Below, in pieces: positions 2,671 through 29,754 of a stretch of DNA of 64,000 nucleotides. Both the position numbers and the translations under genes were made by a program. This DNA comes from an uncultured bacterium (GTDB lineage Bacteria > Patescibacteriota > Saccharimonadia > UBA4664). The notes under the pieces were generated by a model. The model was not told the origin of the DNA, searched no databases, and saw only the letters and a program-made list of their open reading frames with translations. Numbering within the stretch: position 1 is the stretch's first letter; each line of letters begins with the position of its first letter. Where the stretch lies: contig CAVUEQ010000001.1 of NCBI GenBank assembly GCA_963740635.1, positions 657,026 through 721,025 of the forward strand, given 5' to 3'.

Positions 2671-4068
2671 CTAGGCAGGAATTGTTTCAGTGGGGTTGCG
2701 GCGGTGGATGACCTTGATTTGGCAGAGCTCGCGCAGGCCATGGATGCCACGCTCGCGACCCTGGCCGGAGTTTTTGAAGCCGCCAAAGGGATCGGCTGGC
2801 GAGAAGCGATCTTCGAAGTTGAGGGCAATTGAGCCTCCGTCGATTTGACCGGCCACTCGCTCGGCCCGGTTGAGGTCGGAGGAGATGACGCGGCCGCCGA
2901 GGCCGTAAGGGGTGTCGTTGGCCAGCGAGACGGCCTCCGCATCAGTTTTGAAGGTGACGATGGGCAGCACCGGGCCGAAAACTTCTTCGCGCCACACCCG
3001 CATGTCGGGCTTGATGCCGGTGAGCAGAGTCGGGGCAACGTAAGCCCCTTTTAGAGCGCTGGGCACGGGCAGCTGCGCGGCGATTCTGGCGCCGCTATCG
3101 AGGGCCTCCTGCAGTTGACTTTTGATTAGCACCTGCTGGCGCTTGGCCACCAGACTTGAAATGTCAGTGTCGGGATTGGACCCAGGGCCGATAGTTTTAG
3201 TCTCAAGGACTTTTGCCAGCTCGCGGGTGAGGGCCGGAGCGACGGATTCGTGGACTATTAGGCGCTTGATGGCACTGCAGACTTGGCCGCAATTCCCGAA
3301 GCGCCCGGTGTAAATGATGCGCGAGGCCTCGGTGAGGTCGGCATCTTCGAAGACCACGCAGGGGTTGGAGCCGCCCATTTCCAGCACGGCCTTGATGAAT
3401 TTGTCGGCGGCGGTCCTGTACAGGAGTTTGCCGGTGCGGGTGCTGCCGGTGAACCAGATGAGGTCAACATCTGACTCGACCAGCTGCTGGCCGACGTCTC
3501 CCCCGCCATAGACTTCGGCGAACACGCCCTCCGGTAAGTTGTGCTTGTTAATTATCTCCTCGATGAGGCGCCCAACCAGGGGGCATTCCTCTGAGGTCTT
3601 GAACACGACTGGGTTGCCCGCGATAAGGTTCGGGAAAATGCCCCATACGGCCATGCCAAATGGGTAATTCCACGGCGCAATGGCGGCGGCCACGCCATGC
3701 GGCTCGTATCGGATGTAGTGGTGCGACTCGTCATCGCTCAGCGTGACTTCATCGGCCAGCGCCGTCTCAGCGTGGTCCAGAAACCAGGTGAGTTCAAGAT
3801 TGGTATAGCGCGTGGCCTCAGACCGGGCCTGCTCGATCGGCTTGCCCATTTCTTGGCTGATGAGCGTGGCGATTTCCTCAATGCGGGCCGCGAATTCGTC
3901 ACGGATTGGCTCGAGCAGTTTGACCCTAGCAGCCACGCCGAGGTCTTTCCAGGCGGTTTTGACGGCCTGAGCCTGCTTAACTTTGGCTTTAATTTCGGCC
4001 TGAGTCGAGACCTCGACTTCGCCATTCACGGAATAATTTTCGGCCGGATTGGTGGAAATTAATTTCAT
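2671..4068 (-). CDS. NAD(P)-dependent aldehyde dehydrogenase
   Basis: 465-aa ORF with an ALDH family signature: FTGSTRTGK, LEMGGSNP, GQVCSAIKR, EEVFGPVLP. TGCTAAAAT-N6-ATG lies directly upstream. Confidence 0.9.
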   Translation of the reverse strand: MKLISTNPAENYSVNGEVEVSTQAEIKAKVKQAQAVKTAWKDLGVAARVKLLEPIRDEFAARIEEIATLISQEMGKPIEQARSEATRYTNLELTWFLDHAETALADEVTLSDDESHHYIRYEPHGVAAAIAPWNYPFGMAVWGIFPNLIAGNPVVFKTSEECPLVGRLIEEIINKHNLPEGVFAEVYGGGDVGQQLVESDVDLIWFTGSTRTGKLLYRTAADKFIKAVLEMGGSNPCVVFEDADLTEASRIIYTGRFGNCGQVCSAIKRLIVHESVAPALTRELAKVLETKTIGPGSNPDTDISSLVAKRQQVLIKSQLQEALDSGARIAAQLPVPSALKGAYVAPTLLTGIKPDMRVWREEVFGPVLPIVTFKTDAEAVSLANDTPYGLGGRVISSDLNRAERVAGQIDGGSIALNFEDRFSPADPFGGFKNSGQGRERGIHGLRELCQIKVIHRRNPTETIPA

Positions 4069-4132
4069 ACGGGTATTTTAGCAGACGAAACCGGCTGCAC
4101 TTCTCATCGCTGAGAGGCGCGGCCGGCTGCTG

Positions 4133-4825
4133 TCATGCGACGTCTTCCTCTGAGACATACTTCATCCTGCGCGAGTCGAAAACCCACTTGGGGGCAAGGA
4201 GAGCGACCGGCAGAGGCTTCGTCACACCCCCGAGTTCGCACAGGACGATCCGCCAACGTGCTAGGTTCTGTTTCGGACGGGGGTTCTGCACCTCCGCAAG
4301 TTCGCCCGTGAGAGCGATCCGGTGGGTTCTGGACAGAACTCTAGTCAGCCTAGCGTGAGCGCCGGCGAGAGATTCCCCCCATGGCAAGCTGGGGGATGAG
4401 CCGTACCATTGGTTGAGGTAAACGAAATACTGCAGGCAGACTGCAACCCCGAACATGCGGCGGGTGTCCGTGGTGAAGTGATGCCCACGGCCGACGAAGC
4501 GGAAGACGGGTTCCGGCTTGAAGGCGTCGAGTTGTCGCTGAATCCAGATCGTGGTTAGGAAGTTGAGGTTGTTGTACCAGACCTCCTCGACGCTAGCCAG
4601 CCGGTGGGGCGGCTCCCGAAGGGGAAGATTCTCGGCGCAGAAGCGGGCGGTCTGAGTGACATTGGCCATGTCTTCGAGCGAGAACTGCCACCGCCAGGCG
4701 AGAGCGAAGGCGCCGGTTTGCCGGGCTAGTATGCGCATAACGCCGGCAATTTCGGGAATCGCCAGTAGCTCATCTGCCGACTTCCGGCAGTTAATACGCG
4801 TCTCGAGCAAGAAGCGCTTGGACAT
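4133..4825 (-). CDS. Hypothetical protein, no recognisable family
   Basis: 230-aa ORF with GGAGG 6 nt upstream of the ATG. Non-repetitive composition. Sits between purB and the aldehyde dehydrogenase. Confidence 0.55.
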   Translation of the reverse strand: MSKRFLLETRINCRKSADELLAIPEIAGVMRILARQTGAFALAWRWQFSLEDMANVTQTARFCAENLPLREPPHRLASVEEVWYNNLNFLTTIWIQRQLDAFKPEPVFRFVGRGHHFTTDTRRMFGVAVCLQYFVYLNQWYGSSPSLPWGESLAGAHARLTRVLSRTHRIALTGELAEVQNPRPKQNLARWRIVLCELGGVTKPLPVALLAPKWVFDSRRMKYVSEEDVA

Positions 4826-7451: not shown

Positions 7452-8026
7452 ACTGGGCTCGCTTTCGTCATTAATTTCTGGAGAGTTGCTGGATAAAGGC
7501 TGCGCTCGGCCTGCTTAATGCGCTCGTGCAGGATGGCGACGGAGTCGCCGGGCTCCACGGGTACCTGCTCCTGGGCGAGGATGGGCCCGGCGTCGAGCTC
7601 GAGGGTGGCGATGTGGATGGTGCAGCCGGTAACGTTCGAGCCGGATTCGAGCGCGTCGCGGACGGCAGTGTCACCTTTGAAGGCGGGCAGCAGCGACGGG
7701 TGGGTATTGATGATTTTGCCTTCGTAGCGGGCAAATACCGGCTCGGCGAGAATGGTCATGAAGCCGGCCATGGCGACGAGGTCAATGTGGTGGCGCTCGA
7801 GGACCTCCACCAGCTCACGCGAATAGGCGGTGCGGTCGAAGTCCCGGCCGTAGCTGCGACGCTCCACCAGCTCGGTGGGCACACCGGCGGCCGCCGCGAT
7901 CTCCAACCCGCGGCAGGGGCGGTCGGCCACCACCAGCGATACCTCAACCCCGGCCTTGAGCATAGCCTCCAAAATCGAACCGACGCCCGAAACCATCACG
8001 GCGAGCCTAGTCACAACGTGGCACAC
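7448..8026 (-). CDS. purN: GAR formyltransferase
   Basis: 192-aa ORF: LAVMVSG.GS...INTHPSLLPAFKG...TIH.A..ELDAGPI. ATGA overlap with purM. Confidence 0.9.
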   Translation of the reverse strand: MCHVVTRLAVMVSGVGSILEAMLKAGVEVSLVVADRPCRGLEIAAAAGVPTELVERRSYGRDFDRTAYSRELVEVLERHHIDLVAMAGFMTILAEPVFARYEGKIINTHPSLLPAFKGDTAVRDALESGSNVTGCTIHIATLELDAGPILAQEQVPVEPGDSVAILHERIKQAERSLYPATLQKLMTKASPV

Positions 8027-8108
8027 AACATAACGTATTGATTTTACCTGGAATTTGGGGCCGGGGCAAAGCGCCTAAGCGCGCGTTATGTCAGATAAAA
8101 TTACGAAA

Positions 8109-8942
8109 TCATTTCAGCGTAGTAATTGGCCTCGATTGTACTACGTAAAATTTTCCTTCTTTAAACGCCCATTCAATATCTTGCGGTACTCGAAAATGCT
8201 GTTCGATTCTCAGCCCGATCGATGCAATCTCTTCCACCTGTTTCTCGCGTAACGTGGCTTTGTCTGACATCGAAGCAGGGACTTGAACGACCTTATTCTC
8301 GGTACCAGTGAACAGCATCTGACTATCTTTAACACTGATATGAAACTCGGGTACGCTTAGTGGTTTTTTAATCACGACCCAACGGTCTGGCGTTATGGCC
8401 CCCTGCACAATCATTTCCCCCAGCCCATAGACGGCTTCAATAATCATAGAGTTTCGGTCACTCGTGACCGGGTTGGCGGTAAACATCACCCCTGATACCT
8501 GGCTGTCGACCATATCCTGCACCACAACGCCAACCGTTAACTGGTCTTCGGAAAGGTTTTTATCTTCGGCGTAGCTCAGTGCTCGCCCGGATCTTATTGA
8601 ATCCCAGCACTTTCGGACGCTATCATCGAGGCGGCCCTCACTGACATTCAAATACGACTCTAATTGGCCGGCCCAAGATGCATCACTCGCATCTTCGACA
8701 GTCGCGGAAGATCTGACTGCCACCCTGGTCGTGTTGAGCTTAAGGAAAGCATGGTGCAATTCAGCTTTGAACCCCGCGCTTAGGGGCCTGGCGGCAAAAT
8801 CATTGGATGCCTCGGCCGCAATTGCAAACCCGTTGGGAACAGGGAAACCGACCGCTAAAAGTTCACCCAGCGATGCAGCCTTGCCTCCATAGTTTGATGC
8901 ATTAACTCTATTGATCTCGCTCAGCTGTTTGATGTATTTCAT
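8109..8942 (-). CDS. PPDK_N-type ATP-grasp (PEP/pyruvate-binding) domain protein, stand-alone
   Basis: 277-aa ORF: YGGKAASLGELL..GFPVPNGF, VAVRSSATVEDA...WAGQLESYLNV, SGVMFTANP, GLGE.IVQG, PQDIEWA...VVQSRPIT. Markedly lower GC than the flanks. Confidence 0.8.
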   Translation of the reverse strand: MKYIKQLSEINRVNASNYGGKAASLGELLAVGFPVPNGFAIAAEASNDFAARPLSAGFKAELHHAFLKLNTTRVAVRSSATVEDASDASWAGQLESYLNVSEGRLDDSVRKCWDSIRSGRALSYAEDKNLSEDQLTVGVVVQDMVDSQVSGVMFTANPVTSDRNSMIIEAVYGLGEMIVQGAITPDRWVVIKKPLSVPEFHISVKDSQMLFTGTENKVVQVPASMSDKATLREKQVEEIASIGLRIEQHFRVPQDIEWAFKEGKFYVVQSRPITTLK

Positions 8943-10462
8943 GATAACTTTCTGACAATCCCGTGATCGGCATCTAGCTCCACCAAATCACCTTCTTTAA
9001 ACACATGCGTGGCATGCCGCGTTCCGATGACGCTCGGCAAGCCTAGCTCCCTGGAAACAATGGCGGCATGCGACGTAACGCCACCTTCATCCGTGACGAT
9101 GCCAATCGCCTCCCTGATCAGCGGCATCATTGCCGGCCGGGTGTGACCGGCCACCAGAATTTGGTTTTTCTTAATGGATCTCAGCTTGTCTTGCATATTG
9201 TCCCCCCAGTTGTATAGGCACACCCGGCCCCTCACAACCCCACGCATGGCTGGACTGCCCGACACTTCTACGATGTGCGATAGGTTTACAGCCGGGACCA
9301 ACCTGTCGAACATCATTTGCGCCTCTTCGCCATAAAAGGTAGTGATTTGACCATCGGCAAGGTAAATCATGTATTCCTCATGCTTTCCCATCCGATCAGC
9401 CGCATCCTCCTGTGTGTATGAGAAGGTTCCATCGAGAAAACGCTGCAGCTCATTGATATTCAGATAAGCAAAGGCATCTTTGCTTATCCCCCTGCGCCGG
9501 GCGACCTCCCTCGATAGGCCGATACCGGTCATGATAAGAAGCATAAATCCATCAACGCGCAAATTAAAGCGGTAAAAACCTAAATCAGCGAGAAAATTAA
9601 TAGTGCGAATTGTGTCTTGAGGAAGGTATAACTCACTAGCCAATCGAGTCCGCGCGGCTAAAACCTGCTCTGCCCGGCCTTTAACGATGGCGAGCTTTTG
9701 ACGCAGCTGCGTTATTGGCATGGCCGCATCCCGTAAGAGGTGCTTCATAAAAAACTCGATGTCATAGGACCAGGAGCCGTCCCCAATGCTCAAAATCTTG
9801 TACTTATTAAAATGCTCTTCTAGATCACTATATAATTTCGGGTACTCGGTTTGCAGCTTGTGCATTTTCTCTACTGCAGATTTGAGGACGGAATGATTGC
9901 TAATGAGTAGGGTTAGCCAATCGCGCCCTTCTTCGCCCATGCGGGTTAATTTTTCAGAAACCGCGAGTTCGGCCAGGTAGGAGTCTACTCTTTCTGTAGC
10001 GACGCGTTTTTTCAGCTCGTTTTTTATGCCGTCTTCAAACAAGACCGTGCGCTGCGGCTGGCAGGCAAGGAAATAGGAAAACACTATACTATCGAGCTCA
10101 TATGTTTTGAGAAACAGGTCATTTAACTGCGCGTCGCTCAGACTGGCAATATTTAAGCTATTGGCATCATCGATATGCCGGCCAACTTTTTGCAAAATGC
10201 TTTTGACGTCGCGAAAATACTTCGCCCGGTTAGCCACATCCGAAAAGTATTGGTAATAATAATGAGCAGATAATCTGAGCTCGTTGGATTCGTAATACGC
10301 CTTGCCTTGCTTATCTCTACTATAGAAAATGTAATATTTGTCACCGCGAAAGCCTAAGCTAGCCAGAGTTTTGGCATGGGGCAGGACTTCCTCAAAGTAG
10401 TGGGCAAGCGGAGGAACATCGTTGACGCCGTACGCATATTGGTAATTCCTTTTACTCGCCAC
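8939..10462 (-). CDS. Protein with an unassigned ~420-aa N-terminal region and a C-terminal PEP-utilising (swivelling phospho-His) domain
   Basis: 507-aa ORF ending ...GIVTDEGGVTSHAAIVSRELGLPSVIGT..., the mobile-domain catalytic His motif. ATGA overlap with the downstream ATP-grasp gene. Confidence 0.75.
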   Translation of the reverse strand: MASKRNYQYAYGVNDVPPLAHYFEEVLPHAKTLASLGFRGDKYYIFYSRDKQGKAYYESNELRLSAHYYYQYFSDVANRAKYFRDVKSILQKVGRHIDDANSLNIASLSDAQLNDLFLKTYELDSIVFSYFLACQPQRTVLFEDGIKNELKKRVATERVDSYLAELAVSEKLTRMGEEGRDWLTLLISNHSVLKSAVEKMHKLQTEYPKLYSDLEEHFNKYKILSIGDGSWSYDIEFFMKHLLRDAAMPITQLRQKLAIVKGRAEQVLAARTRLASELYLPQDTIRTINFLADLGFYRFNLRVDGFMLLIMTGIGLSREVARRRGISKDAFAYLNINELQRFLDGTFSYTQEDAADRMGKHEEYMIYLADGQITTFYGEEAQMMFDRLVPAVNLSHIVEVSGSPAMRGVVRGRVCLYNWGDNMQDKLRSIKKNQILVAGHTRPAMMPLIREAIGIVTDEGGVTSHAAIVSRELGLPSVIGTRHATHVFKEGDLVELDADHGIVRKLS

Positions 10463-11357
10463 CGGTAATGAGGGCCTGATATTCTTTGCCCTTGAAGTCG
10501 GTGCGAGCTACGCCGCCTTTAACGTGAATGGGGATTGACTCGGCGTGGGCAGGAAGATAATCGTGACTGTCTTCGGCGACTCCGAGTTCATCCTGGAGTA
10601 GAGATCTGACGACCCCATCGTGCGCGACTAGAACGTACATTCGCTTTCGGCCGGCATCAGTTTCGTAATGTTGCCGAGTTAGCATAGCCACATCTTCGAT
10701 GACCCCCTTGGCCCTGGCCGCTACGTCCCGGCCCGTTTCTGCCCCAATCGCTTTGGCGACCGCCTCAGCTTCTGGATCGCTCCCCCTCAGATGAGCTTCT
10801 TTCCAGCCTTTTCCGTGCCTTTCTCTAAGAGATTTAATGTAGCCCATGGGGTTCTCGTTGCGCTCATCTGTTGTGCCTGGCCGAAACGGTATGTAATAAA
10901 TATCGCCCTCAACCAGACGGTCGTTGGGCAGTGAGTCGGGGCGCTGTTCGTAGACGGGAGAGACGACCCTTATGCCTTGTTGCTGCAACTCATCGTCATG
11001 TTCAAGAATGGCATTGATGGCTTCAGTAGAGGTTTCCTCTGCCCGCCTGCCGCCTTCATCCGGAAGACCGGCGCCCATGGGGTAGTCAGGACTATCGTAT
11101 CTTTGCGAGCTGGCAATGAATGATATGTCGACTTTACCCCCTAGAGAGCGAGCAGCTTCAAGTACCTGCTCCCCCAATTCTCTTGATTGCTGGACGCCCT
11201 TCTCGGTTAAATGCCCGAGTGTTTCCGGACGCTCTTCATCCATCGAATATTCCGCATGCCTCGCCACAATCAGCTCGAAGTCCGGAGTTGCGGTTAGATG
11301 TTCCGCGACGTTTTCTGCTGACTCGTGCCCTGGCGGTTGCTCTTGGAATTGGTCCAT
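10452..11357 (-). CDS. Histidine phosphatase superfamily (phosphoglycerate-mutase-like) protein
   Basis: 301-aa ORF with LIVARHAEY (RHG-type motif) and VLVAHDGVVRSL. First gene of the low-GC three-gene unit. Confidence 0.6.
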   Translation of the reverse strand: MDQFQEQPPGHESAENVAEHLTATPDFELIVARHAEYSMDEERPETLGHLTEKGVQQSRELGEQVLEAARSLGGKVDISFIASSQRYDSPDYPMGAGLPDEGGRRAEETSTEAINAILEHDDELQQQGIRVVSPVYEQRPDSLPNDRLVEGDIYYIPFRPGTTDERNENPMGYIKSLRERHGKGWKEAHLRGSDPEAEAVAKAIGAETGRDVAARAKGVIEDVAMLTRQHYETDAGRKRMYVLVAHDGVVRSLLQDELGVAEDSHDYLPAHAESIPIHVKGGVARTDFKGKEYQALITGGE

Positions 11358-11447
11358 TCTGCAATTCTACAGCTGTTTTATGATCTGTGAAGCATTGACT
11401 GGGCTGGTCAGATATCTCAAGATACGGCTATGTGACAAGGAATTCGG

Positions 11448-14400
11448 GTGCTTAGACTACACCGCCGGGACCGGGTGAGCAACAACGAAGTCAGCCAGCT
11501 GCACGCGGCGGGGATGAAAACGCCGACGACGGTGGCGGCCGAGTGGGTGTATTACGTGGAGACTTCGGGCCGGCTGGGTGACGATGATGCAAAGAAGCTG
11601 AAGTGGTTGCTGGGCGAAACGTTTGACCCCCTGGGCACGCGCGAGGCAACCTTTTTGGGCGAGCACCCGAGCGTGATTGAGATCGGGCCGCGGCTGAACT
11701 TTGAGACGCCGTGGGCCAGCACCGCCCGGCAGATTTGCCACTCGGTGGGGCTCCGGGCGGTAGTGAGGATTGAGCGCGCGCGGCGGCTGGGTTTCCCGAA
11801 GCGGCTGAGCGAGGCCGAGCATGCGGACCTGGTGGCGGCGCTGGCCGACCGCATGACCCAGCAGCCCTACGGGCAAGCGCCGGAGACGCTGGTCGTGAGC
11901 GGGGAGCCGGAGCCGGTGCATGTGATACACGTAATGAAGCACGGGATTGAGGCGCTGCGCCGGGCCAATACCGACTTCGGGCTGGCCATGGACGAAGAAG
12001 ATCTGAACAATTACCTGGATCTGTTTGCCAACCGGCTGAAGCGCGACCCCACGGACGTGGAGATTTTTTCGCTGGGACAAGGGAATAACGAGCACGCGAG
12101 GCACGGGTTTTTCCGGGGCAGCCTGGTGCTCGACGGCCAGCCGCTGGGCACGAGCCTGATGAAGATAGTGAAGGCGCCATGGCAGGCCAACCCGAACAAT
12201 TCGGTGATCGCGTTTCATGATGATAGCTCGGCGATCGAGGGGCGGCGGGTGCACGTGATGGCGCCGGAGAGCCCCGGCGAGCCGAGCCCGTTTGAGCTCG
12301 ACGACCGCACCTACCACCCGACGCTGACGGCCGAGACGCACAATTTCCCCACCGGCATCGCGCCATACCCGGGGGCCGCGACCGGCACCGGCGGGCGAAT
12401 TCGCGACAACCAGAGCGTGGGGCGGGGCGGATTGGTGGTGGCAAGCGGCGTGGGTTACAGCGTCGGCAACTTGCACATTCCCGGCTATGACCTGCAGTGG
12501 GAACAGGACGGGGTGGCGCATCCGGCGAATTTGGCATCTCCCTTGGATATTTTGATCGCGGGCTCCAACGGCGCCTCGGATTACGGCAACTGCTACGGCG
12601 AGCCGGTATTGCTGGGGCACGTGCGGACATTTGGGCAGAAAATGCCCGGCGGGTACCGGGCTTGGTTTAAGCCCATCATGTATTCCGAGGGCGTGGGCAT
12701 GCTCGACGCACTGCATGCCGAAAAGGGCAAACCGGAGCCAAAAATGCTGATAGTACAAGTGGGCGGACCGGCCTACCGGATCGGTATGGGCGGGGGTGCC
12801 GCCAGCTCACTGATGAGCGGCGACAACACCGAGGCGCTTGATTTTAACGCGGTGCAGCGGGGCGACGCCGAGATGGAGCAACGGCTCAACCGCGTGATCC
12901 GCACGTGCATTGAGCTGGGAGCGGATAATCCGATCGTGAGCGCGCATGACCTGGGGGCCGGCGGCGATTCGAACGCGCTGCCGGAGATTGCCGAGCCGGC
13001 GGGGGCGCGGATTGACCTGCGGGCGATGCCGGTGGGCGACGCGACACTGTCGGTGCTGGAGATCTGGGGCAACGAATCGCAGGAGCGCGACGCGCTGCTG
13101 CTACGGCCGGAAGATTTGGAGCGGTTTGAGGCTATTTGCAAGCGCGAAAACGCGCCGTTTGCGGTGGTAGGCGAAATTACGGGCGACGGGAATTTGGTGG
13201 TGTACGACGACAGCAACCACAGTACGCCGGTAAACCTCCCCCTGGAGCCATTTCCGGGCGGGGTGCCGATAAAGACGGTGGAGCTCACAACGGTGGCGCC
13301 GGAACTGAAGCCGCTGAAGCTGCCGGGGGATTTGACGGTCCGGGAGGCGCTAGAGCGGGTGCTGCGGCTGGTGTCGGTGGGCTCCAAGAGTTGGCTAACG
13401 CGCAAGGTGGACCGGTGCGTGACCGGGTTGGTGGCGCAGCAGCAAGGAGTGGGGCCGCTGGAGACGCCGCTCGCCGACTTTGCGATTTCGGCGCACAGTT
13501 TGTTTGGCAATAGCGGCACGGTGCTGGCTCAGGGCGAGCGGCCGCTGATTGGATTAATTTCGCCTAGTGCCCAAGGGCGCATGACGGTCGGCGAGGCCCT
13601 CACGAACCTGATGGGGGCGCGCATTTCGGACCTCAGCGACGTGCGGGCCAGCGCCAACTGGATGTGGGCGGCCAAGCTCGAGGGCGAGGGCGCGCGGTTG
13701 TACGAAGCCGCCGTGGCCATGAGCGATACCATGACGGCGCTGGGCATGGCGGTGGACGGCGGCAAGGACAGCCTGAGCATGGCGGCCCAAACGCCGGCCG
13801 GGCTGGTGAAGGCTCCGGGGCAGCTGGTGGTGGCGCCGTATGCCGTGATGCCCGACGTGCGGCAAAAAGTGACGCCCGACTTTAAAGGTGAGGGCGACGT
13901 ACTGATATTGGTGGATTTGAGCGGTGGCCACGCCAGGCTGGGCGGGTCGGCGCTGGCCCAGGCCTACGGGCAAATCGGCGACGAGGCCCCCGACCTCGAC
14001 GACCCGGCGGTGCTCGGCCAGGCCTTTGCCAGCGTGCAGGGGTTAATCCGGCGCGGCCGGCTGCGCTCGGTGCACGACCGCAGCGACGGCGGCCTGCTGG
14101 TGACGGCGCTCGAGATGGCCTTGGCCGGCAATTTCGGCCTGGAGCTCGATTTGCCCGCGACCGATTCAGGGCCGCTGGCCGCGCTGTTTGCCGAGGAGCT
14201 CGGCGTACTGTTGGCGGTGAAGCCCGACAACGCCGAAGCGGTGCGGGCCGAGCTAGCCGCCGACCGGGTGGCGAGCGCCACCTTGGGCCGCGTGGGTGTG
14301 ACCGCCGGGCCCGTGCGCGTGCGGGTGGGCGGGAGCACAGTGCTCGACATGCCCTTGCACGAGCTGCGCGGCTTGTGGGAAGACACCGCCAGCCATCTCG

Positions 14401-15338
14401 ACGCGCTGCAAGCCAATCCGGACTGCGTGGCGGAAGAGGCCGAGCTGCTCAAATCGCCGCGCGTATCGCCGCGCTGGCACCTCACCTACACCCCTACCGG
14501 CGTGCGGCCGCCGGTGAGCAGCGGGGCGGCGCGGCCCAAGGTGGCTGTGCTGCGCGAGGCCGGCAACAACGGCGACCGCGAGATGGCCGGGTCGTTCCTG
14601 GCCGCCGGATTTGAGGTCTGGGACGTCACCATGAGCGACATTATTAGCGGCCGCACCCACCTCGGCCAGTTCCGGGGCGTGGCGTTCCCGGGCGGGTTCT
14701 CGTTTGGCGACGTGCTCGACGCCGGCAAGGGCTCTGCTGGAGTTATTCGGTTTAACAAGGTGCTGGCCAAGGAATTTGCCAACTTCTACGAGCGCCCGGA
14801 TACGTTTTCGCTGGGAACATGCAATGGCGCGCAGCTGATGGCGCTGCTGGGCTGGGCGCCGTTTATTAACCTGGCCGACGACGAGCGGCCGCGCTTCATT
14901 AGCAATACTTCGGGCCGGCTCGAGTGCCGATTCGTGACGGTGGAGATTGGGCCGAGCCCGGCGATTATGCTGCGCGGCATGGAGGGCAGCAGGCTGGGGG
15001 TGTGGGTCGCGCACGGCGAGGGCCGGCTGCACGTCCCCACGCCCGAGGTCATGAAGCAGATCGGCGAGCAGAACCTGGCCCCCATGCGGTACGTGGAGCC
15101 CGACGGCGGCCCCACCACGGCCTACCCGTTCAACCCCAACGGCAGCCCCGGCGGCATCACGGCATTGTGCTCGCCCGACGGCCGCCACCTGGCCATGATG
15201 CCGCACCCCGAGCGCCTTGCGAACGCCCTCTGGCAGTGGCCGTGGCTGCCGGAGGACTGGGCCTCGCTGCCCGCCAGCCCGTGGCTGCGCATGTTCCAGA
15301 ACGCCCGCGAGTGGTGCGACCGGCAGACATCCCGCTAA
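11448..15338 (+). CDS. purL: FGAM synthase, large single-chain form
   Basis: 1296-aa uninterrupted ORF with an FGAM-synthase core and a C-terminal glutamine amidotransferase (GTCNGAQL, HPER). The exact start is uncertain: GTG 11448 or GTG 11475. Confidence 0.92.
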   Translation: MLRLHRRDRVSNNEVSQLHAAGMKTPTTVAAEWVYYVETSGRLGDDDAKKLKWLLGETFDPLGTREATFLGEHPSVIEIGPRLNFETPWASTARQICHSVGLRAVVRIERARRLGFPKRLSEAEHADLVAALADRMTQQPYGQAPETLVVSGEPEPVHVIHVMKHGIEALRRANTDFGLAMDEEDLNNYLDLFANRLKRDPTDVEIFSLGQGNNEHARHGFFRGSLVLDGQPLGTSLMKIVKAPWQANPNNSVIAFHDDSSAIEGRRVHVMAPESPGEPSPFELDDRTYHPTLTAETHNFPTGIAPYPGAATGTGGRIRDNQSVGRGGLVVASGVGYSVGNLHIPGYDLQWEQDGVAHPANLASPLDILIAGSNGASDYGNCYGEPVLLGHVRTFGQKMPGGYRAWFKPIMYSEGVGMLDALHAEKGKPEPKMLIVQVGGPAYRIGMGGGAASSLMSGDNTEALDFNAVQRGDAEMEQRLNRVIRTCIELGADNPIVSAHDLGAGGDSNALPEIAEPAGARIDLRAMPVGDATLSVLEIWGNESQERDALLLRPEDLERFEAICKRENAPFAVVGEITGDGNLVVYDDSNHSTPVNLPLEPFPGGVPIKTVELTTVAPELKPLKLPGDLTVREALERVLRLVSVGSKSWLTRKVDRCVTGLVAQQQGVGPLETPLADFAISAHSLFGNSGTVLAQGERPLIGLISPSAQGRMTVGEALTNLMGARISDLSDVRASANWMWAAKLEGEGARLYEAAVAMSDTMTALGMAVDGGKDSLSMAAQTPAGLVKAPGQLVVAPYAVMPDVRQKVTPDFKGEGDVLILVDLSGGHARLGGSALAQAYGQIGDEAPDLDDPAVLGQAFASVQGLIRRGRLRSVHDRSDGGLLVTALEMALAGNFGLELDLPATDSGPLAALFAEELGVLLAVKPDNAEAVRAELAADRVASATLGRVGVTAGPVRVRVGGSTVLDMPLHELRGLWEDTASHLDALQANPDCVAEEAELLKSPRVSPRWHLTYTPTGVRPPVSSGAARPKVAVLREAGNNGDREMAGSFLAAGFEVWDVTMSDIISGRTHLGQFRGVAFPGGFSFGDVLDAGKGSAGVIRFNKVLAKEFANFYERPDTFSLGTCNGAQLMALLGWAPFINLADDERPRFISNTSGRLECRFVTVEIGPSPAIMLRGMEGSRLGVWVAHGEGRLHVPTPEVMKQIGEQNLAPMRYVEPDGGPTTAYPFNPNGSPGGITALCSPDGRHLAMMPHPERLANALWQWPWLPEDWASLPASPWLRMFQNAREWCDRQTSR

Positions 15339-15403
15339 TCTGTGGCATAATACGTGGTACTTCAGTTGTTTTGACATCCTACAACCCCACTACGGAGGCG
15401 GTT

Positions 15404-15925
15404 ATGAGACACAAACCCAAGCCGCCGCGATTCGTGCGGCAACGCCAAAGGGCCACGCGTTGGAGGGTCTTGCACCGCATGGCCAGGAATTTTCTGTTTG
15501 CGCTGGCGGTTTGCTTGTTTTCATATGGGCGGATAAGTGGCTTGGCGCTCACGCTATTAGCGCTAGTTGGTACGGAAATAGCCTGGCATTACTGTACCAG
15601 GACGGCACCGCTTCAGCCGATACCTGATATCCGCGCGTTGGAAGGCAGCGGTCACGGATTGTGCTGCAGCGACCTCATCTACATCAAAGAAAGTTGCGGC
15701 CACGCGGCGAGCTACAAGGTGGGCGAGGCTGGGCCAAAAGTCTGCCTCTGCTGCTGCGAGAAGTGGTTGCGCTACACAGGGATCGACCTGGACCGGCTGC
15801 GGCCTTACCCGCTCGAGCCGTCCTGCCCGATAAGGCACCGGCACGAGCTGGCCTGCCTGGTGCTTCCTAGACCGCACTTGCTCGCTCACTTATCCCAGCC
15901 CGGCGCCCGGGTGTTTTTCGACTAG
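15404..15925 (+). CDS. Cys-rich membrane protein, paralog 1 (unassigned family)
   Basis: GGAGG-N5-ATG at 15404. The 174-aa product is the tail of ORF 14924..15925. It has hydrophobic helices, then GLCCSDLIYIKESCGHAASYKVGEAGPKVCLCCCEKWL. Confidence 0.6.
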   Translation: MRHKPKPPRFVRQRQRATRWRVLHRMARNFLFALAVCLFSYGRISGLALTLLALVGTEIAWHYCTRTAPLQPIPDIRALEGSGHGLCCSDLIYIKESCGHAASYKVGEAGPKVCLCCCEKWLRYTGIDLDRLRPYPLEPSCPIRHRHELACLVLPRPHLLAHLSQPGARVFFD

Positions 15926-15940
15926 CTACCGGAGGTAGTA

Positions 15941-16495
15941 ATGGATAACCGAGACGAAGAGACTCAGCGCGAAGCGGCGGCGGCCTTTAGATACAGGCTG
16001 ACCGGGACGGCGTATGGCCCGTTGATCTTCCTGGCAGGATTCTGGTTGGCGGTGATGACGATAATCACCGCATTATTCACAGGTAACATCTGGTTGGCGC
16101 TGGTGGCCGTCGCCCTTCCGTTTGCCGGATTATGGCTCTCGTTCGCCTTTGCACGGAGAATATGGTCGCGGCAGATTCCGCACATCAGACCGCTGCGGGC
16201 AGACCCGGCCAACCCCAACGGGTTCTGCCAAAGCGCCATGTTGAGCTTGGCCGATGGGTGCGAGCACGCGGCCGGTTACGTGGTAGGCTACCCGGAGGTG
16301 AGGCTCTGCCTGTGCTGCTGCGCCAGGTGGCTCTTCCGCGGCCTCAGGGAAAGCCGGTTCTCGATAGAAATCCTAACTGATGACAGGGGGCCACGGCTGA
16401 GCTTCCCCGGCCAGGATCAGCGCTGCTTCGCCGACAGGCGAGCACCCGCGGTGGCGTACCTGGTGAGGCAATCGGCTCCGTGGATGGAACACTGA
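15941..16495 (+). CDS. Cys-rich membrane protein, paralog 2 (unassigned family)
   Basis: 184-aa ORF with two long TM helices, then GFCQSAMLSLADGCEHAAGYVVGYPEVRLCLCCCARWL. This aligns with the upstream gene's motif. Confidence 0.6.
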   Translation: MDNRDEETQREAAAAFRYRLTGTAYGPLIFLAGFWLAVMTIITALFTGNIWLALVAVALPFAGLWLSFAFARRIWSRQIPHIRPLRADPANPNGFCQSAMLSLADGCEHAAGYVVGYPEVRLCLCCCARWLFRGLRESRFSIEILTDDRGPRLSFPGQDQRCFADRRAPAVAYLVRQSAPWMEH

Positions 16496-16503
16496 AGCAT
16501 GGG

Positions 16504-16536
16504 CTCGAGGGCGCAGGAGTTTTACGCGCCCTCGGG
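16504..16536. terminator. GC-rich hairpin between convergent genes
   Basis: CTCGAGGGCGC-N11-GCGCCCTCGGG. No clear U-tract. Confidence 0.4.
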
Positions 16537-16552
16537 TCCGGCACCGGTATTA

Positions 16553-16636
16553 TTATTTAGGCTTCTTGTCTTTCTTGGGGCCTTTGGGTTTCTTAACTTC
16601 TTTGCCCTTTCCGCCCTTGTCTCTGCCTTTGGCCAT
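16553..16636 (-). CDS. 27-aa lysine-rich small protein (candidate)
   Basis: My translation is MAKGRDKGGKGKEVKKPKGPKKDKKPK*. GAGGG lies 6 nt upstream of the ATG. Too short for the ORF track. Confidence 0.35.
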   Translation of the reverse strand: MAKGRDKGGKGKEVKKPKGPKKDKKPK

Positions 16637-16699
16637 GATGCCCTCGCTTTCATATGCGACTAACATTAGCACACTTCCCCGCCGGGCATGGGCGATGGC

Positions 16700-17037: not shown

Positions 17038-19005
<1,968 letters not shown>

Positions 19006-19038
19006 GGTTAGATTGTACATCTTTGCTACAATGTCGCT

Positions 19039-20755: not shown

Positions 20756-21064
20756 ATGCCGACCGTGGATTTTACAAAGGAAGAACTACTTACGGATATG
20801 CGCGTGCTAGTCGATGAGCGACTGGATGAGAAGTTGGAGGCGCGATTCAAGAAGGAGCGAGAGTACACGCGCAGCTTGCTTGATGAGCGATTCGCACAAG
20901 AGCGCGAGTATACGCGGCAGATGATGACTGATACCTTTTTGAGCTTTTGGGAGTCCAATCTGGAGCCGGCTTTCGAGTCGCTGGAGACCGAAGTCAAAAA
21001 GCAGGGACGGCTATTGGCACGTCACTCGAACGACATCATGGAGCTGCGGTCGCGCACAACGTAA
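20756..21064 (+). CDS. Hypothetical coiled-coil protein
   Basis: 102-aa product (internal Met of ORF 20663..21064) containing the internal repeat KKEREYTRSLLDERF / AQEREYTRQMM. Confidence 0.5.
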   Translation: MPTVDFTKEELLTDMRVLVDERLDEKLEARFKKEREYTRSLLDERFAQEREYTRQMMTDTFLSFWESNLEPAFESLETEVKKQGRLLARHSNDIMELRSRTT

Positions 21065-21402
21065 TGGCTACTGAGGCACGGACGGCGGAATTTTTGGCGG
21101 AGCAGGTGGCGGGCGCGGGTGAGATACGCACGCGCAAGATGTTTGGTGAATACGCTTTGTATTGCGACGAGAAGGTGGTGGCGTTTATTTGCGACGACCA
21201 ACTATACGTGAAGATTACCGCCGCGAGCCGGCCGTATCTCGACGAGTCGCACGATGCGCCGGCTTATCCCGGGTCGAAGCCATATATCCGGGTGCCGGAA
21301 GATTATTGGGACGATGCCGACTGGATGTCGCGGATCGTGCGGGCGGTGGCCGATAGTGTGCCGGCCCCTAAACCAAAGGCGCGGCGCACGCGGAAAGATT
21401 AG
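21064..21402 (+). CDS. TfoX N-terminal domain protein
   Basis: MATEARTAEFLAEQV...RKMFGEYALYCDEKVVAFICDDQLYVK. TAATG coupling to the upstream gene. Confidence 0.65.
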   Translation: MATEARTAEFLAEQVAGAGEIRTRKMFGEYALYCDEKVVAFICDDQLYVKITAASRPYLDESHDAPAYPGSKPYIRVPEDYWDDADWMSRIVRAVADSVPAPKPKARRTRKD

Positions 21403-25684: not shown

Positions 25685-26536
25685 CTAGGTCTGGTACCCG
25701 ACTGAAATCATGGCGCTGAAAACGAGGATGACGATGAGCGAGAAGCGGAAAAGTTGGCGGGCCCAGAGTTTGTCGTCGGGGGCGGTGAAACCCGCGTAGG
25801 CCAGGCGCAACCAATAGCCGCCGAAGGCGAGCATGACGACGAGATAAACCAAGCCGGTGTAGCCGGTGATGGTGAGCAGGCTGGTGGCGACGAGGAAGGC
25901 CACGATGTAGACGATGATCTGGTTTTTGGCGGCGCGAACGCCACGGCGCACAGGGAGCACCGGGATGCCGGCGGCGGAGTAATCATCGGCGCGGTAGGTG
26001 GCGATGGAGTAGAAGTGCGGCATTTGCCAGGTGACGAGGACCAGGAACAGGATGATGGCGGCGGCGTCGAGGCGGCCGGTGACAGCCGTGTAGCCGACCA
26101 CGGGCGGGATGGCGCCGGAGATGCTGCCGATGAGGGTGCCGTGGACGGTGCGGCGCTTGCCGATGCCATATAGAAACACGTAGGCGAAATAGCCGAAGAG
26201 CGCCAGGCCGGCGGCGAGCAGGTTGGTGAGGGCTAGGAGTATGAAGGTGCCGGCCGCGCCGAGGACGGCCGCGAAGGTGAGGGCGGCGCGCGGCGAGACT
26301 TTGCCGGTGACCAGCGCGCGGTTTTTAGTGCGGGCCATGCGGCGGTCGATGTCGCGGTCCAGGTAATTGTTGGACACGCAGGCCGCGGCGATGACGGCAG
26401 AGAGGCCGGCCAGCGTGGCCACCAGCAGGCCGGCGTCGACCTGGCCGCGGGAGGCCAGAAAAAATCCGCCGGCGGCCGTGATGGCGTTGCCGTAGACGAT
26501 GCCCGGCTTGGTGAGCCGGTAATAGGTTTTGAGCAC
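25685..26536 (-). CDS. cyoE: Protoheme IX farnesyltransferase (heme O synthase)
   Basis: 283-aa polytopic ORF with a GTG start: YYRLTKPGIVYGN...NNYLDRDID..M.RT..R. UbiA family. Confidence 0.88.
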   Translation of the reverse strand: MLKTYYRLTKPGIVYGNAITAAGGFFLASRGQVDAGLLVATLAGLSAVIAAACVSNNYLDRDIDRRMARTKNRALVTGKVSPRAALTFAAVLGAAGTFILLALTNLLAAGLALFGYFAYVFLYGIGKRRTVHGTLIGSISGAIPPVVGYTAVTGRLDAAAIILFLVLVTWQMPHFYSIATYRADDYSAAGIPVLPVRRGVRAAKNQIIVYIVAFLVATSLLTITGYTGLVYLVVMLAFGGYWLRLAYAGFTAPDDKLWARQLFRFSLIVILVFSAMISVGYQT

Positions 26537-26737
26537 CGGGGCCGCTATTTGCCAAACCCTTCGTCGTGAATGATGTATTTGTCCATATTGTCGGGCGTCA
26601 TGCCGTGATAGTTAAGGTTGTTCATGGTTATTTATACTATAACAGTTTCGCGGTACGTCGCTTAAAAGCTATACTCTTGGCTCATAACTGATTTACATGG
26701 CATAATGATTATGCTTATTTGTGATGGAGCGCGGTTG

Positions 26738-27640
26738 ATGTCGAAAACAAAACCGAAGCACCGGCCCGGCAGCCTGGCCAGGGTGATAGTCCTGGGGATT
26801 GCCGCGTTGTCACTGCTGTATATGGTGCTGATGCATGGTCACAATGTGCAGGTGCTTAACCCGAAGGGCTTCGTTGCACAAGAAGAGCTAGGGATGATTA
26901 TTTTTTCCACAATCGTGCTGCTGGCGGTGGCGGTGCCAACTGTCGGGGTGCTCTACTTCACCGCCTGGAAGTACCGTGAGTCCAACACCAAGGCCAAGCA
27001 CGACCCGCAGATGCAGGGCGGTAAGCTGTTCCTGCTAGCGACGTGGGGGATTCCCATCGTTTTTATGAGCGTGCTGAGCGTAGTGATGTGGACTGCGACT
27101 CACAAATACGTGCCTCAACAAACTATTCCCGCATCGGTCAAACCGCTGAGGGTGGAAGTGGTGGCGATGAGGTGGAAATGGCTATTTATCTATCCCGAGC
27201 AGCACATAGCGACCGTAAACTTTGTCCAAATGCCGGTTAATACCCCGGTAACCTTTGAACTGACCGCCGACGATGCACCCATGAGTGGGTTTTGGATCCC
27301 GAACCTGGGCGGCATGCTGTACGCCATGACCGGCCACCTGAACCCCCTCAACCTGATGGCACAGACGCCGGGTGATTATGAAGGCAGATCAGGCGAAATC
27401 AACGGCGCCGGCTTTGCTGACATGAAATTCACGGCCAGGGCTAGCTCCAAGGCAGAATTCGATGACTGGGTGGTCGATATGCGGCAGTCGGGGGGTGTAC
27501 TCGATGACGCTGAGTACCAAAAATTGCTCAAGCCCAGCGAAGCTAATCCCGCCACGTTCTACTCGGATTACGAAAAGGGGTTATATGCTACAGTGCTTAC
27601 GAAATACTCGGGCTCACATAACCACGGCGGACAAGAATGA
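26738..27640 (+). CDS. cyoA: Quinol oxidase subunit II (no CuA ligands seen)
   Basis: ORF 26705..27640. Preferred start is ATG 26738, with GGAG upstream. Two N-terminal TM helices and a cupredoxin domain with GRSGEINGAGFADMKF in place of the CuA Cys/His motif. Confidence 0.85.
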   Translation: MSKTKPKHRPGSLARVIVLGIAALSLLYMVLMHGHNVQVLNPKGFVAQEELGMIIFSTIVLLAVAVPTVGVLYFTAWKYRESNTKAKHDPQMQGGKLFLLATWGIPIVFMSVLSVVMWTATHKYVPQQTIPASVKPLRVEVVAMRWKWLFIYPEQHIATVNFVQMPVNTPVTFELTADDAPMSGFWIPNLGGMLYAMTGHLNPLNLMAQTPGDYEGRSGEINGAGFADMKFTARASSKAEFDDWVVDMRQSGGVLDDAEYQKLLKPSEANPATFYSDYEKGLYATVLTKYSGSHNHGGQE

Positions 27641-29754
27641 ACTGGCAGGAAGTAATCCTCGGTAAGTTAACTACCCAGGCGTTGCCGCACGAATGGTTTA
27701 CTATTGGCGGGACGATCGGCTTTATACTGCTACCATTCCTGGGCGTGATCGCACTTGGCTGGATCAAGGGCTGGAAGTGGTTGTGGGGAGAGTGGTTCAC
27801 CTCGGTTGACCCGAAGCGAATCGGCATCATGTACATGATTGTGGCCGGGTTTATGCTGTTGCGCGGCGGCCTGGACGCACTTATGCTCTGGCTGCAGCAG
27901 GCGCTGGGAGCCAGTAACATGCCCGGTTTTCTGGGCGTCCAGCACGGCTACCTCTCGGCCAGCCACTTCCAACAGATCTTCACAGCCCATGGCAACATCA
28001 TGGTGTTTTTCGTGGCGATGGCCTTCATCTTCGGGCTCATCAACTTCATCGTGCCATTGCAGATTGGCGCGCGTGACTTAGCGTTTCCGTTTTTGAATAC
28101 GCTCGGGTTTTGGCTCTACGTGGCCGGCGTAGTCATGGTAAACATGTTCTTCGCGCTGGGCGGCGAATACGCCGCGACCGGCTGGCTGGCGATAGCACCG
28201 CTACAGGGCAAGGAGTTTAGCCCCGGTGTGGGGGTGGACTATTGGATCTGGAGCCTTCAGATTTCCGGCATTGGCACCACCTTGAGTGCGCTGAACTTCA
28301 TTGTGACCATTATCAAGATGCGCGCACCCGGCATGACCATCTGGAAGATGCCGCTGTTTACCTGGGGCTCGCTGTGCAGCATGCTGATGGCGATCACGGT
28401 CTTCCCGCTGCTGACCGCTACGCTCTTCCTGTCCTTTTTCGATCGCTACATCGGCACGCACTTCTTCACCATCACGGCCGGGGGCGATCCTATGCTGTAC
28501 ACAAGCATGATCTGGATGTGGGGGCATCCCGAGGTCTATATTCTGGTGCTGCCGGCCTTTGGAGTGTTTTCTGAGGTGGTGTCGACCTTCAGCCGCAAGC
28601 CGGTCGCCAGCTACGCGACTGCGGTATTGGGTATGGTCGGCGTCTCGTCACTGGGACTTTCGGTGTGGCTGCACCACTTCTTCACGATGGGGGCCGGCGC
28701 CGACGTCAACGCGTGGTTCGGGCTGATGAGCATGATAATTGCGATCCCGACGGCGGTGCTAATGTATACCTGGATCGCCACGTTGTACAAGGGCCGGATT
28801 CGGTTTGCTACCCCGATGCTGTGGTTTTTGGGGTTTGTCTTCACTTTCACGATCGGCGGCTTGAGCGGCGTAATGCTGGGTATACCGACGGCGGATTTCC
28901 AGCTGCACAACAGCCTGTACCTGGTGGCCCATTTCCACGCCAACGTGGTCGGTGGGGTGCTCTTCGGTATCTTTTGCGGCATTACCTTCTGGTTCCCCAA
29001 GTTTGCGGGCTTTAGGCTCAATGAGCGGATCGGGAAGAACGCCTTCTGGTTCTGGATTGTGGGGTTCTGTTTGTCATTTATACCGATGATGATTCTGGGG
29101 CTAATGGGGGCTACCCGCCGCCTTGACCACTACGACGCCTCTACCGGCTGGCAGCCGTTGTACATCACTATGCTCATCGGCGGCCTCCTCATAGCGAGCG
29201 GCGTGGGCTTGCAGCTGGCTCAGATTTTGGCCAGCATTATTGAGCGCAAACGCCTGGCAGATACGACCGGAGATCCATGGAATGGACGGTCGCTGGAGTG
29301 GTCCACCGCCTCACCGCCTCCGGCCTATAACATCAGCAAAATTCCGACCGTGACCACTCGTGATGCGTTTTGGGAAATGAAGCAAAAAGGCCAGGGCGAG
29401 CCGGCCTACGAGGATATCCACGTCGTTAAGAATACCGCTGCCGGCATCTACATCTCCATCTTCGCTTTCCTCGCGGGCTTTGGCTTCGTCTGGAACATAG
29501 TGTGGCTGTGGGTGGCGTCGCTAATAGCGATAATCGTGAGCATTGTGGTGCGGTCATTCACCGAGGACACCGAGTATACAGTGACGGCGGCCGAGGTGAA
29601 GGCGCTCGAGGAAGAGCGCCTGAAGCACGTGCCTGATGCCCCGCCCGCAAGTGTCAGTGATCCCGATGAAGACATGGGAGTATGGGACCTGGTGAAGTGG
29701 TTGATGGCGTTTGCTTTGGATATTGTGAGGAGGAAACGATGGCGGAAGCAGTAG
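27637..29754 (+). CDS. cyoB: Heme-copper quinol oxidase subunit I
   Basis: 705-aa ORF: GMIWMWGHPEVYILVLPAFG, LWFLGFVFTFTIGGLSGV and HFH motifs. ATGA overlap with subunit II. Confidence 0.93.
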   Translation: MNWQEVILGKLTTQALPHEWFTIGGTIGFILLPFLGVIALGWIKGWKWLWGEWFTSVDPKRIGIMYMIVAGFMLLRGGLDALMLWLQQALGASNMPGFLGVQHGYLSASHFQQIFTAHGNIMVFFVAMAFIFGLINFIVPLQIGARDLAFPFLNTLGFWLYVAGVVMVNMFFALGGEYAATGWLAIAPLQGKEFSPGVGVDYWIWSLQISGIGTTLSALNFIVTIIKMRAPGMTIWKMPLFTWGSLCSMLMAITVFPLLTATLFLSFFDRYIGTHFFTITAGGDPMLYTSMIWMWGHPEVYILVLPAFGVFSEVVSTFSRKPVASYATAVLGMVGVSSLGLSVWLHHFFTMGAGADVNAWFGLMSMIIAIPTAVLMYTWIATLYKGRIRFATPMLWFLGFVFTFTIGGLSGVMLGIPTADFQLHNSLYLVAHFHANVVGGVLFGIFCGITFWFPKFAGFRLNERIGKNAFWFWIVGFCLSFIPMMILGLMGATRRLDHYDASTGWQPLYITMLIGGLLIASGVGLQLAQILASIIERKRLADTTGDPWNGRSLEWSTASPPPAYNISKIPTVTTRDAFWEMKQKGQGEPAYEDIHVVKNTAAGIYISIFAFLAGFGFVWNIVWLWVASLIAIIVSIVVRSFTEDTEYTVTAAEVKALEEERLKHVPDAPPASVSDPDEDMGVWDLVKWLMAFALDIVRRKRWRKQ

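Follow-up and report, generated by a model that had tools for sequence, protein, structure and literature searches.

The described systems closest to the family reported here are zinc ribbon and treble-clef domains tethered to the membrane, the ZAS anti-sigma factors (zf-HC2), and the metallothionein-like or Cu(I)-thiolate proteins (SmtA/BmtA and MymT), together with bacterial Pfam families of unknown function (Cys_rich_CPCC, Cys_rich_CWC, Cys_rich_KTR, and the like) that are likewise defined by a cysteine pattern alone. The family comprises two genes, here called A and B, in the 64-kb stretch of DNA that was analyzed (the window) and one further protein, P0003, from another organism. Like the membrane-tethered zinc ribbons and treble clefs, its domain is short, has only Cys and His strongly conserved, and is predicted to be cytoplasmic; in low-confidence models of the A/B family, a beta-hairpin and then a helix also stand at the Cys cluster. 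In contrast to those domains, A, B, and P0003 contain neither CxxC nor CxxH, the spacing being C-x10-C-x-H-x13,14-C-x-C-C-C, their domain lies C-terminal to a two-helix hairpin, and no zinc-finger profile matches them.

The ZAS proteins are membrane anchored with a cytoplasmic Cys/His metal site, as is predicted for the A/B family. However, their zinc motif (H-x3-C-x2-C) is N-terminal and precedes a single transmembrane (TM) segment, and their gene lies next to that of an ECF sigma factor. In A, B, and P0003 the order is reversed, H-x3-C-x2-C is absent, no sigma factor gene is adjacent, and there is no Pfam match. The dense cysteines of CLCCC and the C-x-H, C-x-C, and CC spacings recall SmtA/BmtA and MymT, although those proteins, as they are generally described, are soluble, only 50 to 80 aa long, far richer in Cys, and devoid of an anchor. 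The models of Cys_rich_CPCC, Cys_rich_CWC, Cys_rich_KTR, and similar families match none of the three proteins, even at E ≤ 10. Judged by its sequences, the family fits no named family and at most may work like a membrane-tethered Cys/His metal domain.

An earlier note on this DNA had found no named domain to which the two proteins could be assigned, and this is borne out in Pfam, NCBIfam, PHROGs, PADLOC, and PDB sequences, none of which gave a match to the family. At E ≤ 10 in Pfam-A and NCBIfam, A, B, P0003, and their isolated C-terminal domains yield a single 9-bit chance match, to the TM region (Mpo1-like). The best PHROGs E-values (0.12 to 0.41) involve the TM region only, and 0 PADLOC families were matched. 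Nothing relevant was found in the literature on CLCCC and CxCCC motifs.

The gene pair downstream of purL

Genes A and B lie in tandem on the + strand, with a large-type purL (11448 to 15338) directly upstream. Gene A (15404 to 15925, +) begins 65 nt after the purL stop codon and encodes 173 aa, and gene B (15941 to 16495, +) follows after a gap of 15 nt and encodes 184 aa. The length first given for B thus stands, whereas the 174 aa given for A had counted the stop codon; both of the peptides quoted in the earlier note are found verbatim at their positions. The window lies on a source contig of 828,923 bp and is identical to a Logan contig. An automatic gene caller starts gene A at the internal Met26 (15479), for a product of 148 aa. 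We favor the start at 15404, since the tblastn alignment of gene A with P0003 already begins at A residue 10.

Each gene has a perfect Shine-Dalgarno site, GGAGG, 5 nt 5′ of its ATG (15394 to 15398 for A and 15931 to 15935 for B, both on the + strand). The start contexts are alike (CTACGGAGG and CTACCGGAGG), and A and B are among the few ORFs in the whole window that have a perfect GGAGG-5 nt-ATG start. A candidate sigma-70-like promoter, CAGACA-16-CATAAT with a TG extension (15324 to 15351, +), overlaps the last purL codons and the intergenic region upstream of A; the consensus promoter scan gave 1 match where 0.4 was expected. Six nucleotides past the gene B stop codon begins an inverted repeat (16501 to 16539, +) with 14-nt arms that are 86% complementary, an 11-nt loop, and then a T-rich stretch, which probably marks the end of the A-B transcription unit. 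A weak terminator-like element, a short GC hairpin followed by GTTTTT, is located at the 3′ end of gene A (15898 to 15912, +), but such sites are in no excess over chance (4 versus 1.7 ± 1.6 expected). The genes downstream of gene B, namely, YCII, RidA, and pgi, are on the opposite strand. From the promoter-like match, the 15-nt gap, the inverted repeat after B, and the orientation of the downstream genes, we infer that A and B are probably a separate, cotranscribed two-gene unit, into which transcription from purL may possibly read through.

The two genes were initially described as tandem paralogs downstream of purL, and the sequence comparison agrees: BLASTP aligns A and B with 31% identity over 95 aa (E = 3e-12). 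The C-terminal domains alone still match at E = 2e-12, and the similarity is therefore not an artifact of hydrophobic composition. The A/B duplication is ancient.

One alternative holds that A and B are spurious reading frames, open by chance in GC-rich DNA and alike through a duplicated DNA segment. Codon usage lends it some support. With log-odds from a training set of 21 ORFs in the window that are long or assigned to a family, the absolute scores of A (−0.08) and B (+0.05) are near zero and only marginally coding-like compared with those of core genes (0.3 to 0.7), and the flanking purL, YCII, and RidA genes have typical scores. Long antisense ORFs (15563 to 15889 and 15964 to 16239) also overlap both genes. 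Against this, the annotated frame ranks best of six by codon usage for both A and B, GC3 is 0.72 in A and 0.76 in B where neighboring genes have 0.72 to 0.84, and both genes have the perfect Shine-Dalgarno sites; reading frames that lack coding signal, which the earlier note had named as a ground for dismissing the pair, are thus not what is seen. The antisense ORFs had no matches in searches and are rejected as true genes on that account. As for a duplicated segment, A and B share none: no DNA-level repeat between them extends beyond 12 nt at the CLCCC codons, and nucleotide identity across the 38-codon motif is 60%.

A third family member

The decisive evidence that A and B are real protein-coding genes comes from a third member. 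When 1.84 billion representative proteins were scanned exhaustively by HMMER with a profile built from A and B, a single additional member emerged, P0003 (168 aa; E = 1.8e-8), which has the A/B architecture along its whole length, with the motif GKCAGQSIGLRTECNHGASYNAGGGSFTKLCLCCCAKWQ and the distal Cys. Its C-terminal domain alone matches that of A at 1e-10 and that of B at 2e-9. The motif is thus shared by a homolog, contrary to one of the outcomes by which the proposed family would have fallen. In the motif, 16 to 17 residues are identical between P0003 and A or B, 10 to 11 of which are encoded by different codons, and nucleotide identity is 46 to 54%. The P0003 ORF is open in DNA of 39 to 50% GC. 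The same full-length architecture in the AT-richer DNA of another organism, with amino acids kept while codons differ, effectively refutes spurious frames on a duplicated segment as the explanation, which we consider extremely unlikely even though A and B, each used in a word-indexed search of 5.8 billion proteins, retrieved nothing but themselves.

No other relative was found. The three-sequence profile detected nothing further among the 5.8 billion proteins. Pattern-plus-tblastn searches of GTDB species genomes and of IMG/VR yielded no relatives, nor did peptide patterns and tblastn in JGI metagenomes, where a strict DNA pattern spanning CxH...CLCCCxxW gave 0 matches. Searches by tblastn of plasmids and phages found no family members, and the rest of the window contains no additional copy. 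The family is real, with three known members and no conserved gene context, and it is very rare and lineage restricted.

The membrane hairpin and the Cys/His core

All three proteins have the elements that define the family, namely, a basic N-terminal tail, a two-helix hairpin, the motif, and the distal Cys. The elements occur in the same order in each: N-terminal tail, two hydrophobic segments, linker, Cys/His core, and variable tail. Gene A encodes a basic tail, a weak two-segment membrane hairpin, the Cys-rich domain, and a variable tail, and gene B encodes two TM helices, an Arg-rich linker, the Cys-rich domain, and a variable tail. The N-terminal tail has 25 to 30 residues, and those of A (11 K/R) and P0003 (6 K/R) are strongly basic. 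The linker, of about 20 residues, separates the hairpin from the Cys/His core and is Arg-rich in B, and the variable tail, of about 50 residues, contains the distal invariant Cys.

The N-terminal TM helices and membrane anchoring that had been proposed are supported by a predicted hairpin before the motif, which is clear in B and P0003 and weaker in A. The TM hairpin of B (about residues 26 to 71; 16016 to 16153, +) has Kyte-Doolittle peaks of 2.2 to 2.4, as does that of P0003, in two clear 19-residue hydrophobic peaks. The hydrophobic hairpin of A (about residues 30 to 60; 15491 to 15583, +), which aligns to those of B and P0003, is weakly hydrophobic (peak of 1.66 to 1.74) and has an Arg within its turn. 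In all three proteins, the two segments are joined by a 3-residue turn. AlphaFold, run with the three-sequence alignment, models a helical hairpin here, with a pLDDT of 85 to 92 for the helices of B. Topology was assessed with the positive-inside rule. The N-terminal tail and the stretch after TM2 together hold 12 K+R versus 1 in the inter-helix turn in A, 9 versus 0 in B, and 8 versus 0 in P0003, and this excess on both flanks of the hairpin predicts an N-in/C-in topology that would place the Cys domain in the cytoplasm.

An opposite arrangement, with an outward-facing Cys domain or a single membrane span, would make this a disulfide-stabilized surface domain, used, for example, for host cell contact by an episymbiont. 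In A, the weakly hydrophobic region possibly forms one span, both hosts look like Patescibacteria, which rely on surface proteins, and Cys-rich extracellular domains are common. We nevertheless find this arrangement very unlikely. Positive charges lie on both sides of the hairpin in three of three proteins while the turn has almost none, B and P0003 show two clear hydrophobic peaks, a signal-peptide-like cleavage context is absent, and the conserved Cys are odd in number, with three of them adjacent, which is awkward for disulfide pairing.

The Cys/His motif lies at 15656 to 15769 (+) in A (GLCCSDLIYIKESCGHAASYKVGEAGPKVCLCCCEKWL) and at 16220 to 16333 (+) in B (GFCQSAMLSLADGCEHAAGYVVGYPEVRLCLCCCARWL). 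With P0003 included, it reads G-x-C-x-[SG]-x8-C-x-H-[AG]-A-[SG]-Y-x-[VA]-G-x6,7-C-L-C-C-C-x-[KR]-W. The Cys/His pattern of the first consensus is retained here, but four of its positions vary in the larger set (S, the leading A in HAA, V in x-V-G, and the L that closes it), and the linker before CLCCC, which had been put at 5 to 6 residues, is 6 in A and B and 7 in P0003. A further invariant Cys lies about 35 residues downstream of the motif in the three-sequence alignment (C151 of A at 15854 to 15856 and C162 of B at 16424 to 16426, both +). The invariant columns include, in B numbering, C96, C107, H109, C123, C125, C126, C127, and C162, i.e., 7 Cys and 1 His, as read from three sequences in which, outside the Cys/His columns, shared ancestry is inseparable from functional invariance. 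The proposal that the motif is the conserved part of the proteins holds, in that it recurs in P0003 with mostly different codons.

In the earlier note, the cluster was read as a putative metal-binding or redox module. We give about even chances to the view, drawn from these sequence features, that the family is a membrane-tethered cytoplasmic metal-binding domain, most likely with structural zinc, to which the variable tail would give specificity. Each protein would be anchored in the cytoplasmic membrane by its two-helix hairpin, with the N and C termini both facing the cytoplasm, and the hairpin would hold the C-terminal domain of about 100 residues against the inner membrane face. There, the core of 7 Cys and 1 His (C, C-x-H, C-x-C-C-C, and the distal C) most likely would chelate metal; the eight ligands would suit a pair of tetrahedral Zn(II) sites, around which a small domain of otherwise variable sequence would fold. 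The cytoplasm is reducing, and together with the odd Cys count, the vicinal CCC triplet, and the His, this leads us to prefer a ligand set over disulfides. The variable tails would carry partner specificity. A and B may pair in a heteromer, although the single copy in the host of P0003 indicates that a heteromer is not required.

Structure prediction adds a weak hint. From the three-sequence alignment, AlphaFold modeled the Cys domain with low confidence (pLDDT of 33 to 44 in the full-length protein and mean of 39.5 when folded alone), and in both of these models a helix begins at CCC and a beta-hairpin immediately precedes CLCCC, the layout of a knuckle-plus-helix zinc site. A Foldseek search with the low-pLDDT model of the C-terminal domain, which is too poor for a meaningful fold comparison, returned nothing below E = 2.5, the E-value of the best PDB match (TM score, 0.28). 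Knuckles of the CxxC type, by which zinc ribbons are typically recognized, are missing from the Cys pattern, and zinc-finger profiles gave no match at E ≤ 10.

The same architecture and topology could instead hold a redox-active or soft-metal cofactor (an Fe-S or Cu(I)-thiolate cluster) in the Cys7His core, in which case the membrane-tethered protein would sense redox state or metal or would buffer metal. The C-x-H, C-x-C, and CC(C) spacings of the 7 Cys and 1 His are unusual in zinc ribbons but occur commonly in metallothionein-like and Cu(I)-thiolate proteins. The host of the window has an oxygen-reducing quinol oxidase and so meets oxidative conditions, and the P0003 gene is closely followed, in the same orientation, by one for a PAS histidine kinase. 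However, Fe-S, metallothionein, and copper-protein profiles give no match, neither genome has metal resistance or Fe-S assembly genes beside its family member, and the kinase neighborhood of P0003 is not kept in the window. Cys also makes up only about 10% of the C-terminal domain, well under the proportion in metallothioneins. On balance, we regard such a cofactor as unlikely.

Somewhat unlikely, but worth stating beside the structural zinc domain, is an undescribed Cys7His metal-cluster fold that would occur in just a few ultra-small bacteria of Saccharimonadia-like type, carried as a single-gene cassette into slots between housekeeping genes and tethering a metal/redox center to the inner membrane face. 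Such a fold would have a lineage-specific purpose, for example, sensing or buffering a metal or oxidant that the host cell supplies.

If the Cys7His core does bind metal, its ligand pattern, and perhaps its small fold as well, would be a new entry in the catalogue of metal-binding domains, and it would offer a biochemical handle on a function-less gene of the candidate-phyla-radiation type. At present, the value of the family is mainly descriptive, as a set of three members with a sharply defined motif that can be used as a search seed once further genomes of these lineages become available. It is tied to no pathway and bears on no long-standing question, and orphan families of this kind are common in poorly sampled lineages.

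Genomic context and hosts

P0003 was found on two metagenomic contigs, L082 and L083, whose DNA is identical. Its gene stands alone there, flanked by a divergent ychF and the PAS histidine kinase gene, and shares no neighbor with the window. The earlier note had suggested a search for recurring neighbors, and no context is conserved: purL, YCII, and RidA stand beside A and B, and ychF and the PAS kinase gene stand beside P0003. In 80 purL loci of other genomes we found no copy of the family and no downstream gene order in common, and the closest purL relatives (62 to 63% identity) have unrelated accessory genes downstream of purL. The different neighborhood of P0003, the absence of a copy at the 80 purL loci, and the low codon scores of A and B all indicate that the family behaves as a rare accessory gene. 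In the mechanism proposed above, the lack of conserved neighbors and the atypical composition in both hosts would likewise fit an accessory role.

Accessory behavior of this kind could also mean that the family travels on a small cassette, mobile or selfish, for instance as a membrane toxin/immunity pair or a phage exclusion protein. The Cys domain would then serve conflict and not housekeeping physiology, an explanation that is orthogonal to the chemistry of the core. Composition is atypical in both hosts: the P0003 gene in L082 is an island of 39 to 50% GC among genes of 55 to 65% GC, and codon scores are low in the window. The gene context is not conserved, the distribution is extremely patchy, and the slot downstream of purL varies in relatives, with a toxin/HTH-like pair there in the Saccharimonadia locus L004. 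An imperfect inverted repeat also lies on either side of the P0003 island, but it is a short one (19 nt, 79%), and a search for this palindrome in the window found no copy. Furthermore, PADLOC, PHROGs, phage, and plasmid searches were empty, and no integrase or transposase gene is adjacent. The GC gap between P0003 and A/B, about 15 points, implies that they do not derive from one recent transfer. A mobile cassette is thus quite improbable in our estimation.

The hosts themselves can be placed only loosely. The best purL matches are to metagenome-assembled genomes (MAGs) labeled Saccharibacteria, Saccharimonadia, Patescibacteria, or “uncultured bacterium.” Together with the tetranucleotide signatures, these affinities suggest, weakly, that both hosts are probably Patescibacteria of the Saccharimonadia type. 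The tetranucleotide signature of the window correlates best with L004 and with Patescibacteria loci, and for L082 the highest correlations are with two Patescibacteria loci, followed by the window.

The site after purL and its surroundings

The site immediately after purL appears to hold varying genes in the genomes whose purL is closest to that of the window (62-63% identity). In the Saccharimonadia locus L004, a small toxin-like ORF and an HTH-like ORF (3668-4471) lie directly downstream of purL, and in L002 this place is taken by a gene encoding a 269-aa membrane protein (13876-14685). The accessory genes of these two loci are unrelated.

In the window, the upstream side of this site displays a strong GC mosaic. 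The genes encoding PPDK_N, PEP-utilizers, and His_Phos_1 domains (8000-11400) have 49 to 55% GC and a GC3 of about 0.53 to 0.55, whereas the adjacent genes for purL, purN, and adenylosuccinate lyase (11450-15340) have 64 to 67% GC and a GC3 of 0.81 to 0.84, which suggests that neighboring core genes between 8000 and 15340 differ in origin. A TfoX_N-domain gene of the competence regulator family (20947-21402, + strand; codon-usage score, 0.03) is atypical in codon usage to the same degree as genes A and B, the tandem membrane-anchored Cys-rich paralogs after purL. Gene B is convergent with a 27-aa lysine-rich ORF (MAKGRDKGGKGKEVKKPKGPKKDKKPK; 16556-16639, - strand), which has GAGGG 5 nt upstream and for which a family search returned no match.

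The metagenomic locus of P0003

P0003, the 168-aa third member of the family, is carried at locus L082 in a low-GC island that lies between the arms of an imperfect inverted repeat (3675-3693 and 4436-4454; 19 nt, 79%). The left arm, which includes TAGACAATATTGTCTA, a perfect palindrome of 16 bp, closely precedes P0003, and the right arm closely precedes the PAS histidine kinase gene. The arms may form a common operator, or they may be what is left of the ends of a cassette. Neither the palindrome nor the repeat was found when the window was searched for them.

Apparent frameshifts in the window and in L082

The glucose-6-phosphate isomerase gene of the window (17409-19017, - strand) is split by an apparent frameshift, with the break near 17890-17905. 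The ORF for the N-terminal part reads past the break into nonsense sequence, and a conserved stretch of 25 residues resumes in a different frame, into a 127-aa ORF (17409-17792). A short-read Logan contig that is otherwise identical to the window stops at 17871, adjoining the break. Possible explanations are an error in the assembly, variation between strains, or decay of the gene to a pseudogene. Elongation factor P in L082 (809-1371) is likewise called as two ORFs, one of 149 aa with EFP_N/EFP domains and one of 38 aa with Elong-fact-P_C, suggesting that this contig, too, contains a frameshift.

A quinol oxidase in the window

CyoA-like (COX2 and COX_ARM) and CyoB-like (COX1) quinol oxidase subunits are encoded at 25685-29754, adjoined by a UbiA-family (heme O synthase-like) gene. 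Because Saccharimonadia/Patescibacteria MAGs are closest to the window genome, both by purL and by tetranucleotide signature, this oxygen-reducing terminal oxidase belongs to what is probably an ultra-small bacterium.
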